From contig OZ024742.1 in the NCBI GenBank assembly GCA_964016885.1, positions 98,890,001 through 98,954,000 of the forward strand: a stretch of DNA of 64,000 nt, given 5' to 3'. Position 1 is the stretch's first letter. The number at the start of each line of letters is the position of its first letter. The notes under the pieces are model-generated. The model did not search any database. It saw only the letters and a program-made list of their open reading frames with translations, and had not been told where the DNA came from. This document shows, one piece after another, positions 6,839 to 46,576 of the stretch. This DNA is from Eledone cirrhosa. Taxonomy: Eukaryota. A program made the translations under genes and the position numbers.

Positions 6839-7346
6839 ATATTGTTATACTTTGGGATGGTCGTGCTGCCAATAAAAACGCACACGCACCTGTTGGTTTT
6901 CTCGTCAGTTTATTATAAATTTCCGGTTGATCAGTTGGTTCGATATCCGGATGGTTGTTTATATCTTGTCAAAGCGCTTTCGTCACACAATATGTGACCT
7001 CCTCAGTGACTACATTTTTATATTATGTCCCTCCTTTGTTCTGTCCTACACCATTTTGTAAATAAACACATAAATAAACGCACACACACACACACGGATG
7101 TAACGCATGCGCAAAGTAAGCACACAAAAACAAGAATGTGGCAGGACAGAACAAAGGAGAGATACAAAAAATAAAAACCTAGTCATTGAGGAGGTCACCG
7201 AATGTGTTAAGAAAGAGCTTTGACAGTATATAAATAACCACCCGGTTAGCGAACCAAACGCTATTTTATAATACAATGAAGTGTAACAATTGCGTGGTGC
7301 GTGTATTTTTTATTTACAGAATGACCCTCCCAAAGTATAACAATAT
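6839..7346. mobile_element. Non-autonomous PLE-like element with inverted termini
   Basis: atattgttatactttggga.ggtc at the left end and gaccctcccaaagtataacaatat at the right. The same terminus occurs at 24510-24530, 33167, 53173 and 54045-54069. Two inverted HHR motifs lie inside. Confidence 0.7.
6968..7010 (-). ncRNA. Minimal type I hammerhead ribozyme motif
   Basis: Minus strand: gtca-CTGAGGA-g-gtcaca(tattg)tgtgac-GAAA-gcgc-TT-tgac. Stem I gtca/tgac, 6-bp stem II, palindromic loop III. A degenerate inverted copy lies at 7182-7224. Confidence 0.75.
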
Positions 7347-17456: not shown

Positions 17457-17497
<41 letters not shown>

Positions 17498-17503
<6 letters not shown>

Positions 17504-20500
17504 AAGTGAGTCCTTCATCAGTGACCCTCCAACCGTCCTCGGCATTTCATCGCTTTAAGGGCCATATGCCTCAGGTTGGTGCGAACAACGGCTAAAAAAA
17601 GTCGTTGGGACACGTAAATAAAGGGGGACGCTAGAGTAACAACAAAGGGGTTTAAGCAACGGAAAGTGAGTAGAAATAGACAAGTCCCAGATCTATATGG
17701 CCCTTAAAGCGATGAAATGCCGAGGACGGTTGGAGGGTCACTGATGAAGGACTCACTTTTTCATATGTATCCCATTTGCAACGCCGCAGCTCCATTATTA
17801 TCATCATATTTACACATATTACTTTTCCATACTGCCTGTCTGTTTCGTTCCTTGTATCTTTACCACTTCTAGCAGTCTCCCTCACTGTTATTCTCTCCTC
17901 AACTTTCACTCACTCATTCTCTGTCACTACCTCTCCTCCTCCTCTTTCCTCCTCCTCCTTCAAGTTTGACCTGTGTGTAATTCTTTTCTCGCGCAGTCTT
18001 GACCGAGCTGGTATGGAATTTTTTTCTCTCTCTCTTTCGTCGGCGACTTCACAAAACTTGCGTTTACCGAATTCGTAGACCAGACGACTTTATCTTCTTC
18101 TTCTTCTTCTTCTTCTTCCTCTTCTCTCCTTTTTCTTTCTCTCTCTCTCTCTTTTTTCCCCCCCGTCAAACTTGGGCGAAATTCTTTCCTTGCTCACATT
18201 TCTACCAGGTTCGATGGTCTTTCGTCTCTTGTTCACGATTTCACAGAGTTTATATTCATAGAGATCTGGGACTTGTCTATTTCTACTCACTTTCCGTTGC
18301 TTAAACCCCTTTGTTGTTACTCTAGCGTCCCCCTTTATTTACGTGTCCCAACGACTTTTTTTAGCCGTTGTTCGCACCAACCTGAGGCATATGGCCCTTA
18401 AAGCGATGAAATGCCGAGGACGGTTGGAGGGTCACTGATGAAGGACTCACTTTTTCATATGTATCCCATTTGCAACGCCGCAGCTCCATTATTATCATCA
18501 TATTTACACATATTACTTTTCCATGCTGCCTGTCTGTTTCGTTCCTTGTATCTTTACCACTTCTAGCAGTCTCCCTCTCTGTTACTCTCTCCTCAACTTT
18601 CACTCACTCATTCTCTGTCACTACCTCTCCTCCTCCTCTTTCCTCCTCCTCCTTCAAGTTTGACCTGTGTGTAATTCTTTTCTCGCGCAGTCTTGACCGA
18701 GCTGGTATGGAATTTTTTTCTCTCTCTCTTTCGTCTGCGACTTCACAAAACTTGCGTTTACCGTATTCGTAGACCAGACGACTTTATCTTCTTCTTCTTC
18801 TTCTTCTTCTTCTTCTTCTTCTTCTTCTTCTTCTTCTTCTTCTTCTTCTTCTTCTTCCTCTTCTCTCCTTTTTCTTTCTCTCTCTCTCTCTTTTTTCCCC
18901 CCCGTCAAACTTGGGCGAAATTCTTTCCTTGCTCACATTTCTACCAGGTTCGATGGTCTTTCGTCTCTTGTTCACGATTTCACAGAGTTTATATTCATAG
19001 AGATCTGGGACTTGTCTATTTCTACTCACTTTCCGTTGCTTAAACCCCTTTGTTGTTACTCTAGCGTCCCCCTTTATTTACGTGTCCCAACGACTTTTTT
19101 TAGCCGTTGTTCGCACCAACCTAAGGCATATGGCCCTTAAAGCGATGAAATGCCGAGGACGGTTGGAGGGTCACTGATGAAGGACTCACTTTTTCATATG
19201 TATCCCATTTGCAACGCCGCAGCTCCATTATTATCATCATATTTACACATATTACTTTTCCATGTTGCCTGTCTGTTTCGTTCCTTGTATCTTTACCACT
19301 TCTAGCAGTCTCCCTCTCTGTTACTCTCTCCTCAACTTTCACTCACTCATTCTCTGTCACTACCTCTCCTCCTCCTCTTTCCTCCTCCTCCTTCAAGTTT
19401 GACCTGTGTGTAATTCTTTTCTCGCGCAGTCTTGACCGAGCTGGTATGGAATTTTTTTCTCTCTCTCTTTCGTCTGCGACTTCACAAAACTTGCGTTTAC
19501 CGAATTCGTAGACCAGACGACTTTATCTTCTTCTTCTTCTTCTTCTTCTTCTTCTTCTTCTTCTTCTTCTTCTTCTTCTTCTTCTTCTTCTTCTTCTTCT
19601 TCTTCTTCTTCTTCTTCCTCTTCTCTCCTTTTTCTTTCTCTCTCTCTCTCTTTTTTCCCCCCCGTCAAACTTGGGCGAAATTCTTTCCTTGCTCACATTT
19701 CTACCAGGTTCGATAGTCTTTCGTCTCTTGTTCACGATTTCACAGAGTTTATATTCATAGAGATCTGGGACTTGTCTATTTCTACTCACTTTCCGTTGCT
19801 TAAACCCCTTTGTTGTTACTCTAGCGTCCCCCTTTATTTACGTGTCCCAACGACTTTTTTTAGCCGTTGTTCGCACCAACCTGAGGCATATGGCCCTTAA
19901 AGCGATGAAATGCCGAGGACGGTTGGAGGGTCACTGATGAAGGACTCACTTTTTCATATGTATCCCATTTGCAACGCCGCAGCTCCATTATTATCATCAT
20001 ATTTACACATATTACTTTTCCATGTTGCCTGTCTGTTTCGTTCCTTGTATCTTTACCACTTCTAGCAGTCTCCCTCTCTGTTACTCTCTCCTCAACTTTC
20101 ACTCACTCATTCTCTGTCACTACCTCTCCTCCTCCTCTTTCCTCCTCCTCCTTCAAGTTTGACCTGTGTGTAATTCTTTTCTCGCGCAGTCTTGACCGAG
20201 CTGGTATGGAATTTTTTTCTCTCTCTCTTTCGTCTGCGACTTCACAAAACTTGCGTTTACCGTATTCGTAGACCAGACGACTTTATCTTCTTCTTCTTCT
20301 TCTTCTTCTTCTTCTTCTTCTTCTTCTTCTTCTTCTTCTTCTTCTTCTTCTTCTTCCTCTTCTCTCCTTTTTCTTTCTCTCTCTCTCTCTTTTTTCCCCC
20401 CCGTCAAACTTGGGCGAAATTCTTTCCTTGCTCACATTTCTACCAGGTTCGATGGTCTTTCGTCTCTTGTTCACGATTTCACAGAGTTTATATTCATAGA

Positions 20501-22972
20501 GATCTGGGACTTGTCTATTTCTACTCACTTTCCGTTGCTTAAACCCCTTTGTTGTTACTCTAGCGTCCCCCTTTATTTACGTGTCCCAACGACTTTTTTT
20601 AGCCGTTGTTCGCACCAACCTAAGGCATATGGCCCTTAAAGCGATGAAATGCCGAGGACGGTTGGAGGGTCACTGATGAAGGACTCACTTTTTCATATGT
20701 ATCCCATTTGCAACGCCGCAGCTCCATTATTATCATCATATTTACACATATTACTTTTCCATGTTGCCTGTCTGTTTCGTTCCTTGTATCTTTACCACTT
20801 CTAGCAGTCTCCCTCTCTGTTACTCTCTCCTCAACTTTCACTCACTCATTCTCTGTCACTACCTCTCCTCCTCCTCTTTCCTCCTCCTCCTTCAAGTTTG
20901 ACCTGTGTGTAATTCTTTTCTCGCGCAGTCTTGACCGAGCTGGTATGGAATTTTTTTCTCTCTCTCTTTCGTCTGCGACTTCACAAAACTTGCGTTTACC
21001 GAATTCGTAGACCAGACGACTTTATCTTCTTCTTCTTCTTCTTCTTCTTCTTCTTCTTCTTCTTCTTCTTCTTCTTCTTCTTCTTCTTCTTCTTCTTCTT
21101 CTTCTTCTTCTTCTTCTTCCTCTTCTCTCCTTTTTCTTTCTCTCTCTCTCTCTTTTTTCCCCCCCGTCAAACTTGGGCGAAATTCTTTCCTTGCTCACAT
21201 TTCTACCAGGTTCGATAGTCTTTCGTCTCTTGTTCACGATTTCACAGAGTTTATATTCATAGAGATCTGGGACTTGTCTATTTCTACTCACTTTCCGTTG
21301 CTTAAACCCCTTTGTTGTTACTCTAGCGTCCCCCTTTATTTACGTGTCCCAACGACTTTTTTTAGCCGTTGTTCGCACCAACCTGAGGCATATGGCCCTT
21401 AAAGCGATGAAATGCCGAGGACGGTTGGAGGGTCACTGATGAAGGACTCACTTTTTCATATGTATCCCATTTGCAACGCCGCAGCTCCATTATTATCATC
21501 ATATTTACACATATTACTTTTCCATGTTGCCTGTCTGTTTCGTTCCTTGTATCTTTACCACTTCTAGCAGTCTCCCTCTCTGTTACTCTCTCCTCAACTT
21601 TCACTCACTCATTCTCTGTCACTACCTCTCCTCCTCCTCTTTCCTCCTCCTCCTTAAAGTTTGACCTGTGTGTAATTCTTTTCTCGCGCAGTCTTGACCG
21701 AGCTGGTATGGAATTTTTTTCTCTCTCTCTTTCGTCTGCGACTTCACAAAACTTGCGTTTACCGAATTCGTAGACCAGACCACTTTATCTTCTTCTTCTT
21801 CTTCTTCTTCTTCTTCTTCTTCTTCTTCTTCCTCTTCTCTCCTTTTTTCTTTCTCTCTCTCTCTCTCTTTTTTCCCCCACGTCAAACTTGGGCGAAATTC
21901 TTTCCTTGCTCACATTTCTACCAGGTTCGATGGTCTTTCGTCTCTTGTTCACGATTTCACAGAGTTTATATTCATAGAGATCTGGGACTTGTCTATTTCT
22001 ACTCACTTTCCGTTGCTTAAACCCCTTTGTTATTACTCTAGCGTCCCCCTTTATTTACGTGTCCCAACGACTTTTTTTAGCCGTTGTTCGCACCAACCTG
22101 AGGCATATGGCCCTTAAAGCGATGAAATGCCGAGGACGGTTGGAGGGTCACTGATGAAGGACTCACTTTTTCATATGTATCCCATTTGCAACGCCGCAGC
22201 TCCATTATTATCATCATATTTACACATATTACTTTTCCATGCTGCCTGTCTGTTTCGTTCCTTGTATCTTTACCACTTCTAGCAGTCTCCCTCTCTGTTA
22301 CTCTCTCCTCAACTTTCACTCACTCATTCTCTGTCACTACCTCTCCTCCTCCTCTTTCCTCCTCCACCTTCAAGTTTGACCTGTGTGTAATTCTTTTCTC
22401 GCGCAGTCTTGACCGAGCTGGTATGGAATTTTTTTCTCTCTCTCTTTCGTCTGCGACTTCACAAAACTTGCGTTTACCGAATTCGTAGACCAGACGACTT
22501 TATCTTCTTCTTCTTCTTCTTCTTCTTCTTCTTCTTCTTCTTCTTCTTCTTCTTCTTCTTCTTCTTCTTCTTCTTCTTCTTCTTCTTCTTCTTCCTCTTC
22601 TCTCCTTTTTCTTTCTCTCTCTCTCTCTTTTTTCCCCCCCGTCAAACTTGGGCGAAATTCTTTCCTTGCTCACATTTCTACCAGGTTCGATGGTCTTTCG
22701 TCTCTTGTTCACGATTTCACAGAGTTTATATTCATAGAGATCTGGGACTTGTCTATTTCTACTCACTTTCCGTTGCTTAAACCCCTTTGTTGTTACTCTA
22801 GCGTCCCCCTTTATTTACGTGTCCCAACGACTTTTTTTAGCCGTTGTTCGCACCAACCTGAGGCACATGGCCCTTAAAGCGATGAAATGCCGAGGACGGT
22901 TGGAGGGTCACTGATGAAGGACTCACTTTTTCATATGTATCCCATTTGCAACGCCGCAGCTCCATTATTATC

Positions 22973-22974
<2 letters not shown>
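17498..22974 (+). repeat. Tandem array of a ~0.7 kb non-coding unit with internal (TTC)n and a 5' inverted partial copy; retrozyme/PLE-like
   Basis: Units start at 17698, 18392, 19131, 19891, 20630, 21393, 22108 and 22868 (lengths 694, 739, 760, 739, 763, 715, 760). 17498-17694 is the reverse complement of the unit-junction region. (TA)n flanks both sides. Confidence 0.95.
18377..18474 (+). ncRNA. Candidate hammerhead ribozyme with reversed strand order and a kink-turn (representative copy; recurs at each unit junction)
   Basis: ccaacc-tga-ggca-TA|tggccct-taaa-gcga-t-GAAA-tgcc-gag-ga-c-ggttgg-agggtca-CTGATGA-a... Stems I and III pair in exact hammerhead register, with covariation against the 33247-33345 copy. 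Confidence 0.65.
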
Positions 22975-23034
<60 letters not shown>

Positions 23035-33044: not shown

Positions 33045-33204
33045 GATAGATAGATATAGATATAGATATATATAACATATGTAATCAGAGTGTTTAGAAT
33101 ATTAATAATAACATTGGATTATATATATATATATATTTATATATTTATATATATATATATATATATATTGTTATACTTTGGGAGGGTCATGTTGCCAATA
33201 TCAG

Positions 33205-33811
33205 AAACGATATATAAACATGAGAAGAAAGAAGAATACTGCGTGGTTGCAAATGGGTTACATATGATAAAGATTGTCCTTCGTCAGTGACTTTCCAACC
33301 ATCATTGGTAATTCATCGCATTAAAAATCCGATACCTCAGGTTGGTGCGAGCAATAAGGAAAAAAAGTTATTGGGACCAGTAATTCGCGTAAAGCGAGGG
33401 GGACAAATAAACAACATAGAAGGATATAAGCAAACCGAAGATAGGAAAATAAACAAGCAACATGGTTGTCCGGTCAGCATAAGCTCGGTAGATTTCATGA
33501 GCGAGAGTTACAAACTGTCCGATGTGTGTGAGATGTAAGCAAGAAGAGACCCACTACAAGCCAAACGGGCGGAAGTGAGAAGGGGAGAAACAGAGAGTGA
33601 GTGAGTGGAAGTGTGAGGAAGAGGTCAGTCGAGAGAAAGTGTAACTGACGGAGGGGGCGAAAGAAGGTGAGAGAAACAGAGAGAGCGGGGAAGCAGTAAG
33701 AGAGAAACAGACAAACGCAGCCGAGGTAAATATATATAAAAAAACATGAGAAGAAAGAAGAATACTGCGTGGTTGCAAATGGGTTACATTTGATAAAATA
33801 GTCCTTCGTCA

Positions 33812-33875
<64 letters not shown>

Positions 33876-33881
33876 TGACGA
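33205..33881 (-). mobile_element. Diverged relative of the 17.5-23 kb array unit (one unit of ~525 bp plus a partial repeat)
   Basis: Direct repeat of ~33208-33290 at ~33731-33815. The reverse complement aligns without gaps to the ribozyme-like region of the array. A short inverted tcactgacga follows a (TA)n tract at ~33872. Confidence 0.8.
33247..33345 (-). ncRNA. Second-family copy of the reversed-order hammerhead/k-turn motif, probably decayed
   Basis: Minus strand: ccaacc-tga-ggta-TC|ggatttt-taa-tgcga-t-GAAt-tacc-aat-ga-t-ggttgg-aaagtca-CTGACGA-a...ttgca. Confidence 0.55.
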
Positions 33882-41866: not shown

Positions 41867-41952
41867 GTAGGAGGTGAGTTTTATTGTAGTACAATAAAGC
41901 AATGCAGATATCGGATAAGAAGCACTCTACAGTTTGTAGGACTGGAGTATAC

Positions 41953-42131
41953 ATAATATAAGATCAAAAGATGGTTAAAGGAGTTCCATGTATTTTATTA
42001 TGCGCATTTCAAAAACAAACATCATCATGCAATAATATTTGATGAAAACACAAATATTATTGCATGATGATGTTTGTTTTTGAAATGCGCATAATAAAAT
42101 ACATGGAACTCCTTTAACCATCTTTTGATCT

Positions 42132-42139
<8 letters not shown>
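41953..42139. repeat. Perfect inverted repeat, 89-bp arms, 9-nt spacer
   Basis: 41953-42041 is the reverse complement of 42051-42139, and it runs into (TA)n. Confidence 0.9.
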
Positions 42140-42188
<49 letters not shown>

Positions 42189-42319: not shown

Positions 42320-42709
42320 ATAAAATATTAAACAAATAATGAATAAACAATTCCTTATATTAAACAAAAAAAGTTCATTATTTAACGATCGTTTCTAGGA
42401 TATATATGTGTTAGAATTGGTATGCATATTCAACAGATCTATGTACAAAATTATACAAAATTATACAAATTATCAAGATTAAATATACATACCAACACAT
42501 ATATACGCCGTCTTAAGACGGCGTATATATGTGTTGGTATGTATATTTAATCTTGATAATTTGTATAATTTTGTATAATTTTGTACATAGATCTGTTGAA
42601 TATGCATACCAATTCTAACACATATATATCCTAGAAACGATCGTTAAATAATGAACTTTTTTTGTTTAATATAAGGAATTGTTTATTCATTATTTGTTTA
42701 ATATTTTAT
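42320..42709. repeat. Spacer-less palindrome, 195-bp arms
   Basis: Centre gccgtctt|aagacggc at 42514/42515. The arms appear identical by eye and the right arm runs into (TA)n. Confidence 0.9.
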
Positions 42710-42975: not shown

Positions 42976-43378
42976 TATATTAATAAAAGGAATTCCAACT
43001 TTGTCTGATTTACTCCTTTTATTTGCAATCCTTTAAAATGTATAATGGTATTAGAATGAAATAGTATGGTAGAATATTAAATGTTCCGTCTTAATTGAAC
43101 AAGTACTTTCCTGCTTTCGCAATCTTCAGGTTCATATTCTGTGGTGACTGTCAAATTTGCAATTTTCAACTGTGAAATTTTAAACAGTTGAAAATTGCAA
43201 ACTTGAGTGTCACCACAGAATATGAACCTGAAGATTGCGTAAGCATGAAAGTACTTCTTCAATTAACACTTAACATTTAATATTCTACCATACTAGTTCA
43301 TTCTAATGCCCTTATACATTTTAAAGGATTGTAAATAAACGAGTAAATCAGACAGTTGGAATTCGTTTTATTAATATA
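42976..43378. mobile_element. Imperfect fold-back element with one HHR per arm
   Basis: Arms of ~195 bp around a gaaattttaa spacer near 43175, with HHRs at 43096-43134 (-) and 43223-43261 (+). Confidence 0.8.
43096..43134 (-). ncRNA. Minimal type I hammerhead ribozyme motif
   Basis: tgaac-CTGAAGA-ttgc(gaaa)gcag-GAAA-gtac-TT-gttca. GNRA loop II (GUAA in the other arm) and palindromic loop III. Confidence 0.75.
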
Positions 43379-45370: not shown

Positions 45371-45432
45371 AAGTTATGTGCTTCAAGAAATCTACACAAC
45401 CTTGTTATGTATATACCGTATATATATATATA

Positions 45433-46036
45433 TGATTTATTTACATTTGGTAGTTTTGGAAGCCTCAACAATGCAGATGGGTAATTCTTCGGGTAACAGG
45501 ACCCGGTGGTGAAGAGAGAGATGTAATGGAATGTAGAATGTGATGTATAGTGTGTAGAGGAACGTAGGAAAGAGCGTAAAAAATAAATATAATAACACGA
45601 GATAGAGTTACCTTGGGAGAGATTTAATTGTCCCTATATTTCGGATTCGCATCCATCATCTGTGGGCGTTTTCTGGGGATGGGTTTATCTGTCGGAGAGG
45701 AACGGTACGTGTCCTCTGCTGTTCGCTAGTTAGTCACAAACAGCGAACAGCAGAGGACACGTACCGTTCCTCTCCGACAGATACCCTCCCCCTCGGAAAA
45801 TCCCCTAGTTGATGAATGCGAATCCAAAATATAGGGACAATTAAATCCCTCCCAAGGTAACTCTATCTCGTGTTATTATTTTTATTTTTTACGCTCTTTC
45901 CTACGTTCCTCTACAGACTATACATCTCATTCTACATTCCCTTACATCTCTCTCTTCACCACCGGATCCTGTTACCCGGAGAATTACCCATCTGCATTGT
46001 TGAGGCTTCCAAAACTACCAAAAGAAAATAAATCTT
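45433..46036. repeat. Long imperfect inverted repeat (~290-bp arms, ~14-nt spacer)
   Basis: tttggtagttttggaagcctcaacaatgcagatggg... versus ...cccatctgcattgttgaggcttccaaaactaccaaa. Centre 45728-45741, with a degenerate HHR-like motif at 45632-45666 (-). Confidence 0.9.
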
Positions 46037-46576
46037 ATTATTCCACAATGCTTCAAGCAAACTTCAATACCCTGATATATATACTATGTAAGAATAATAA
46101 AATTAGGCACACACACACACGCTTACATGCACATAAACACAGACATTACACACTCAATACCAGCACATATGCTCTCCAATAAAGGAATATTTATATAAAT
46201 GAAAGCATGGAAGCAAAACAAATGTAACAATAAATTCAAGGGAAAATTTCTTCCATCTTTCTCTCTGGTGGCATAATGATAATAGATTCTGATTTATACG
46301 CATAGCGAGCAATTTGGGAGCTAGTGGAATGTCGATTAAAGCGACTCCAGTACGTTAGGGGTACATTATTTTATCGACGCCATAATGATGAAATACAAAT
46401 TTAACCTCGACGAGATTTGAACTCAGAGCGTAAATATATGCCGCATAGCAAATAACATAATATTTTCTGATTTAATCACAAGGCCAACAATTTTGGATGA
46501 GGAGAATGTCGATTGAATTGACCACAGTGCATCACATGTTCTTACATCTGTACTATCTACCTATCTAGGCAAACTC

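Follow-up and report, generated by a model that had tools for sequence, protein, structure and literature searches.

A (TA)n-inserted tandem repeat of Eledone cirrhosa, represented here by a decayed copy, carries a covarying hammerhead motif of non-circular order that is likely self-cleaving

Does a diverged repeat copy of Eledone cirrhosa, which had been proposed from its letters alone to supply covariation for a reversed hammerhead, belong to a family of ribozymes whose segments stand in a non-circular order? The copy occupies positions 33,205-33,881 of the stretch of DNA analysed here, 64,000 nucleotides of contig OZ024742.1 (assembly GCA_964016885.1, positions 98,890,001 to 98,954,000), which we call the window. 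Non-circularly permuted hammerheads have so far been found almost solely in environmental RNA of unknown origin; the order considered here recurs about 20,000-fold in an animal genome, where every helix comes with its own natural series of mutations, which makes structure and activity directly testable. In the reading that we regard as probable, the locus is a decayed copy of a (TA)n-inserted tandem repeat with a covarying non-circular hammerhead, likely self-cleaving, which would spread through a retrozyme-type cycle by means of the reverse transcriptase (RT) of a Penelope-like element, probably a Naiad.

The motif lies on the minus strand (33378-33276) and aligns with the plus-strand array at 17695-22989, which belongs to the sister subfamily A, at 77% identity over 145 bp (E ~4e-27). 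The unit containing it, assigned to subfamily B, measures 526 bp, close to the ~525 bp first estimated, and the tandem periods of subfamily B range from 521 to 531 bp; the ~700 bp first given for the array turned out slightly low with respect to the spacings listed below. Outside the motif, only short simple-sequence patches match between the unit and the array, as in the poor conservation initially ascribed to the remainder of the unit. The 3' end of the unit at 33210-33735 enters (TA)n ~115 nt beyond the predicted cut. The features of the locus and of the array are as follows.

33210-33735, minus strand: one full 526-bp unit of subfamily B, a non-coding repeat, 94-95% identical to other copies over all 526 bp
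33736-33815, minus strand: 5'-truncated remnant of the preceding unit, starting at the CUGACGA block, 94% identical to 33210-33290
33816-33881, no strand assigned: (TA)28 and a 10-nt inverted motif piece (33872-33881), an inverted 5' end according to sequence and palindrome
33374-33378, minus strand: upstream strand a (GUCC), partner of the GGAC after CUGACGA (covariation, 50-row alignment)
33352-33373, minus strand: side hairpin of the stem II junction, with two changes private to this copy (helix 92% paired)
33347-33350, minus strand: upstream strand b (UCGC), partner of the GCGA before GAAA, replacing the 5' strand of stem II (helix 93.5% paired)
33337-33345, minus strand: CCAACC bridging strand and U-GA, the non-bulged strand of the k-turn-type loop (covariation)
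33324-33336, minus strand: Block S, that is the stem III strand GGUAU, C17 and a stem I strand; the G at 33330 is private to this copy
Between 33331 and 33330, minus strand: predicted cut, by analogy
33315-33323, minus strand: conserved UAA(W) linker, GCGA (b') and the nucleotide preceding GAAA (linker letters kept in 48-49 of 50 rows)
33307-33314, minus strand: Block G, that is GAA(U) and a stem III strand; A15.1 is U at 33311 (subfamily comparison)
33295-33306, minus strand: 3-nt bulge, GA-U and GGUUGG, that is the bulged k-turn-type strand and the second bridging strand (counts, alignment)
33276-33294, minus strand: Block C, that is a stem I strand, CUGACGA, one nucleotide and GGAC (a'); 6 of 7 pairs with double changes
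17695-22989, plus strand: tandem array of sister subfamily A with 8 motif copies, the first 5'-truncated, at spacings of 694-763 bp
17492-17699, minus strand: inverted, 5'-truncated subfamily A copy heading the array (alignment)

Directly after the 3' end of the unit, ~30 bp at 33170-33201 (minus strand) correspond to the 3' extremity of another Penelope-like element, of which a full RT and a GIY-YIG remnant are found at locus L112; this match is due to nested insertions within one TA run. Matches to microRNAs returned by Rfam at 33804-33881 all fall below the gathering score and were discarded as artefacts of the TA palindrome. Within the array, A replaces the k-turn G (2n) in the copies at 19147 and 20646 (plus strand), and C replaces U16.1 in the last copy, at 22884 (plus strand).

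The letters on which the original prediction was built are present in the sequence: the change of stem III from C-G to U-A, those of the triplet from AUA to AUC and of CUGAUGA to CUGACGA, the invariant CCAACC/GGUUGG, GCGAUGAA and AGGAC, the conversion of the upstream hairpin from CAACG/CGUUG to CAAUA/UAUUG, and, in this copy, the replacement of A15.1 by U (33311) and the G at position 1.1 (33330). The double changes listed for stem I are likewise all there, but the one described as C-G to U.G is private to this copy, the G at 33291 being found in 1 of 38 subfamily copies and an A in the other 37; since the subfamily has U-A at that position, stem I displays four double changes rather than two plus wobbles. 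These 38 near-full copies derive from a genome search with the 151-bp motif (1,254 candidates, 40 scored, 30 fetched) and were ranked by their likeness to the copy at 33,205-33,881, which shows eight differences from the subfamily majority, the second most among the 38, in line with its decay. As had been anticipated for the subfamily, GAAA is found in 36 of the 38 copies (genome-wide, GAAA 2,174 versus GAAU 11), while U1.1 occurs in 36 and A2.1 in all 38, restoring the U-A first pair of stem I; the contrary outcome, namely a subfamily consensus of GAAU with an unpaired 1.1-2.1 position, did not occur. At H17, on which these copies were not selected, we counted 31 C, 6 A, 1 U and 0 G. Furthermore, in contigs of sequencing run X21, which may be the sample behind the assembly, 279,281 of 279,478 depth units show the letter that completes GAAA and 155,051 of 155,110 show U1.1, and contigs of run X23, from a second organism, have the same letters, the kind of runs X20-X24 being unrecorded. 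Nineteen of the 24 runs contained only 0.04 of the words, which we count as no evidence, and X13 (RNA) yielded 0 contigs. It follows that subfamily B has an intact core and that the present copy, which contributes covariation, is decayed; from its U at A15.1 and the G.A at its first stem I pair, it is predicted to be impaired as a ribozyme.

Read from 5' to 3', the 5' half of the motif comprises a (GUCC), the hairpin, b (UCGC), the bridge, U-GA, stem III, H17 and stem I, and the 3' half comprises UAA(W), b' (GCGA), one nucleotide, GAAA, stem III, a 3-nt bulge, GA-Y, the bridge and stem I, after which the motif ends with CUGANGA, one nucleotide and a' (GGAC). Seven helices are kept across subfamilies. 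The hammerhead core (CUGANGA, GAAA and NUH) is found in the subfamily, the copy under study departing from it at A15.1, and stems I and III flank the core. A canonical stem II, pairing the strand after CUGANGA with the strand before GAAA, is absent: between AGGAC and GCGAU a single pair can form, and this candidate helix was ruled out. That pair, 10.1-11.1, occurs in 32 of 50 rows (64%) of the alignment described below, as A-U, U-A, G.U or G-C, with C.A, G.A or A.A in the others (p ~0.05); since the core-adjacent nucleotides pair in only these 32 rows, stem II amounts to no more than one pair, beyond which a junction opens. Both would-be stem II strands pair with upstream segments instead, so that the GCGA and GGAC listed at first as simply invariant take part in two further helices. 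We suggest that the place of stem II is taken by b/b' and, judging from topology, that CCAACC/GGUUGG is equivalent to the bridging helix between stems I and II of type-SGC hammerheads.

The loop between the bridging helix and stem III displays the elements by which the standard k-turn is defined, that is a 3-nt bulge followed by G.A and A.G; the helices flanking it covary, and one clade has U at 2n. The linker between the bridging helix and stem I has 0-1 nt. The UAA linker (33321-33323, minus strand), whose letters were not fixed by the search patterns, reads U in 48, A in 49 and A in 49 of 50 rows and is also present in an unrelated family, family G, and it likely makes a tertiary contact. 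The reversed-hammerhead reading is upheld by core conservation and covariation, on which the identity of the motif as a hammerhead rests, and has to be completed with the organisation of stem II, the k-turn-type loop and the two further helices, none of which it addressed. Among the best 150 of 167 matches of an Rfam scan there was no hammerhead. By analogy with known hammerheads, self-cleavage after the NUH triplet is likely.

The fold was evaluated on 152 distinct copies, retained after dropping 154 duplicates, 10 copies without the upstream anchor, 8 truncated ones and 1 at an edge; of their 56 cluster representatives, 6 rearranged ones were dropped and the remaining 50 were aligned without structure. 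The 35 pairs of the 8 helices, drawn by eye from some of these same rows, are paired in 89.4% of cells, core and GA columns being partly fixed by the search patterns. Double changes occur in 23 of the 35 pairs, a value as high being reached in 0 of 500 shuffles. The four top pairs by APC-corrected mutual information (APC-MI), out of 5,909, are predicted pairs, as are 8 of the top 20, the rest of which are lineage effects. The summed APC-MI is 6.01, to be compared with a mean of -0.01 and a maximum of 1.46 under a tree-aware null in which the changes of each column are placed independently on a tree built from the same alignment; 0 of 300 such simulations reach the observed value.

Individually, one pair of stem I, three of the bridging helix and one of b/b' (a single event on one branch) have E < 0.05, whereas no single pair of stem III, the hairpin or a/a' is significant after correction, these helices being supported in sum. 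Stem I is paired in 89% of cells, with double changes in 6 of 7 pairs, and stem III in 93%, with double changes in 2 of 5 and further variants in subfamilies retrieved later, family G included. The side hairpin (92% paired) has double changes in 4 of 7 pairs and the bridging helix in 5 of 6, three of which are those significant under the tree-aware null, while b/b' (93.5% paired) passes from U-A to A-U in 8 rows, by one event, and from C-G to U-A in 2 rows. The a/a' helix is 76-86% paired, and its pair 11-126 is A-U in 20, G-C in 19 and U-A in 4 of the 50 rows. Minimum-energy folding, a method that cannot show pseudoknots, recovered the full set of nested helices in 1 of 6 sequences and part of it in others, with z-scores from -2.8 to +0.4. 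Taken together, these data indicate that the structure is real and well supported.

The same arrangement recurs throughout the genome. The spacing AUH-16-GAAAU-22-CUGANGA has 19,875 matches, compared with 44 for reversed controls, and both GA steps are present in 16,214 of these cores (control, 0). Five patterns that exclude both known subfamilies at one position yielded 469, 2,162, 1,091, 1,571 and 274 matches, versus 0, 0, 0, 15 and 2 in the respective controls, and stem I pairings that had been predicted on subfamilies A and B proved to be maintained in further subfamilies retrieved afterwards. In particular, family G, identified in a search with 274 pattern matches that include other families, has helix sequences unrelated to those of the superfamily but identical order and spacing. 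It mostly carries a GUA triplet, has no side hairpin and places the G after CUGAGGA opposite the C before GAAA, that is a G-C pair at 10.1-11.1; its copies are ~75-80% alike, as in an older family. A long subfamily A array at 54.547-54.566 Mb (G000:C2) has 16 perfect-match units listed over ~19 kb. At loci L111-L112, three copies of a diverged subfamily lie in a local tandem duplication of 5.2-5.3 kb; the corresponding spacing of the motifs, considered as a sign of an autonomous element, was rejected as being this duplication.

With type-SGC hammerheads (HRIMA-1 and variants; Eckert et al. 2023, PMC10085705) the motif has in common the order of the S, G and C blocks, the bridging helix between stems I and II and a full catalytic core. 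Among the papers found, this one alone describes the type, from metatranscriptomes only, whereas the present motif occurs in the genomic DNA of an animal repeat. Different from type SGC, where stem II uses the strand after CUGANGA, the repeat takes it from an upstream strand, a solution that the six-permutation scheme supposes not to exist, and has no uninterrupted Block C with its own stem II strand. It also possesses an added helix and an optional hairpin at the stem II junction, a linker of 4 nt (typically 3 in type SGC) between stem I and the stem II side, and a junction of stem III with the bridge on both strands via the k-turn-type loop. The published permutation scheme assumes an intact block of CUGANGA and stem II, and the wiring seen here breaks that assumption; in a literature search comprising few subscription papers, no account of such a wiring from an animal was found, and PMC13725137 merely cites the permutation paper.

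In type SGC, a direct connection between stem III and the bridge is sometimes seen despite their distance in the crystal structure (PMC10085705), and a k-turn would be a physical answer to how stem III reaches the bridge. The loop shares with the standard k-turn (McPhee, Huang, Lilley 2014, PMC4382518) the 3-nt bulge and the G.A and A.G pairs between two helices, and its 3b.3n pair is non-Watson-Crick in most rows; unlike the standard motif, one clade has U rather than G at 2n. We found no paper describing a k-turn inside a natural retroelement hammerhead.

As for the element that carries the motif, the 3' ends of its copies are fixed at (TA)n and their 5' ends truncated to a variable extent; tandems of ~470-760 bp and inverted heads also occur, and the copies consist of dispersed non-coding tandem units with one ribozyme motif each. 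Units of this kind, with one ribozyme per unit and thousands of dispersed copies, are likewise typical of metazoan non-LTR retrozymes (Cervera and de la Pena 2020, PMC7229834; Li et al. 2026, preprint 10.64898/2026.07.22.740005), whose size range of 51-972 bp includes that of the repeat and for which a Penelope-like partner has been proposed as well. However, those retrozymes carry type I hammerheads, found with type I descriptors, while the motif of the repeat, given its non-circular order, is not type I. From its sequence, it would work like a type-SGC hammerhead within a retrozyme-like element, while departing from both in one defining feature. Other Penelope-like elements were noticed to carry canonical minimal type I hammerheads, at L070 (~212, plus strand), L112 (~7370, minus strand) and other loci; in one type I family, CUGAUGA is followed by an extra A and by a GGAC paired with GUCC, the letters of helix a/a'.

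Among 166 terminal copies, 147 have a downstream TA run, located in 131 of the 147 at 60-139 nt past the predicted cut, a count that is biased by its anchor and includes at least one chance match. In an unbiased count, the sequence turns into TA at the cut in 13 copies and runs on past it in 9,580; a cleaved monomer, copied starting at its 3' end, is hence not the template. Priming at an internal site of a circle or of a multimer would fit the 3' ends, and internal initiation has been reported for one Penelope-like RT (PMC11167929). The 5' ends (75 at the cut, 83 at +10, 12 at -8 and 4 at -22) are confounded by TA microhomology and show no clear run-off peak at the cut.

Naiads are described as having (TA)n targets and tandem and inverted insertions (Craig et al. 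2021, PMC8557442), and the repeat shares with them (TA)n targeting, 5' truncation and tandem and inverted insertions, features that other Penelope-like elements of this genome display as well. Different from Naiads, whose ORF encodes an N-terminal GIY-YIG and a C-terminal RT, the repeat has no ORF: in the loci examined, no ORF was contiguous with the motif, and all 10 of 10 upstream matches to Penelope-like elements were parted from it by TA runs. No Naiad ORF joined to the motif was found in this genome in the loci examined, and one exact search for the Naiad RT motif gave two matches, both by chance, on the non-coding strand of another element. The RT and GIY-YIG frames near L111-L112 were discarded as candidates, being separate Penelope-like elements with TA runs between them and the motif. 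Since no Naiad ORF is attached and other TA-flanked Penelope-like elements are present, a Naiad partner is likely and not more; the partner is likely a Penelope-like RT, probably that of a Naiad.

On this basis, it is possible to propose how the repeat would function and spread. The k-turn-type loop would bend stem III back, and the bridging helix could then join the tips of stem I and b/b'. Transcripts spanning two units would be cut into monomers and circularised, and reverse transcription would begin at an internal site, 60-140 nt beyond the cut, and proceed across the junction, which would generate ends away from the cut and tandem arrays.

A different possibility, which we judge unlikely, is that the hammerhead is active only as a domain-swapped dimer, with the C block coming from the neighbouring unit or from a second molecule. 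Covariation cannot separate pairing within a unit from pairing between units, the linkers of 0-1 nt make the geometry of a monomer tight, and amphibian retrozyme hammerheads are reported to need dimers (PMC7229834), the units of the repeat also occurring in tandem. Yet the spacing of the blocks is fixed across all 19,875 copies and in the unrelated family G, the k-turn-type loop is placed where a monomer needs a bend, and type-SGC RNAs that possess this bridging helix cleave as monomers, the rates of the RNAs of that type tested in vitro being 0.007-0.19 per min (PMC10085705).

It is also rather improbable that the fold persists as a signal for recognition or packaging by the retroelement protein, or by a k-turn-binding protein, with slow or absent cleavage. 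Such a role would agree with insertions whose ends lie beyond the cut and leave the motif intact, with the frequent disruption of the 10.1-11.1 pair and with the lack of a run-off peak at the cut, but all catalytic letters and the H of the triplet are kept while N7 and the helix letters vary, which is the pattern expected under selection on catalysis. Finally, kinship among the subfamilies, a structure drawn by eye from some of them and search patterns that fixed some core letters could favour a resemblance due to chance, or to shared ancestry without structural constraint, but this is hardly credible in view of the tree-aware null, the control counts of 44 and 0 and the success of predictions from two subfamilies in those fetched later.

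The self-cleaving, retrozyme-like reading would also bear on Naiads themselves, which are reported to have no canonical hammerhead and 'half cores' in 8 families only (PMC8557442). Compared by eye, the 3' end of Naiad_Obim in the supplement of that paper displays the wiring of the superfamily with its k-turn-type loop, as a, hairpin, 6-bp b/b', bridge, loop, GUA, 6-bp stem I, CUGAUGA and a'; three other Naiad ends, also by eye, follow the order a-hairpin-b, S, G, C, a' without that loop. At L260 (~6858, plus strand), a decayed motif has letters resembling the Naiad_Obim end, and the preceding 1.2 kb has no ORF. We tentatively hypothesize, with slightly less than an even chance of being right, that Naiads and their non-autonomous derivatives have four-segment hammerheads, not covered by the six published permutations, with a split stem II and with a k-turn in stem III that lets a host L7Ae-family protein switch cleavage on or off. 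If this is true, the reported absence of hammerheads from Naiads would be resolved, and tens of thousands of such ribozymes per genome would exist across invertebrates, invisible to every standard descriptor.

The window contains further repeats. At 59.7-62.0 kb (minus strand) and 13.5-16.1 kb, two open frames of 434-462 aa and a second copy with 86% identity resemble a LINE reverse transcriptase, and a 287-aa frame at ~16.0-16.9 kb (minus strand) resembles a segment of a Helitron Rep-helicase. Long palindromes are located at 6839-7346, 41948-42144, 42320-42709, 42976-43378 and 45430-46038 and are probably MITE-like or inverted insertions.
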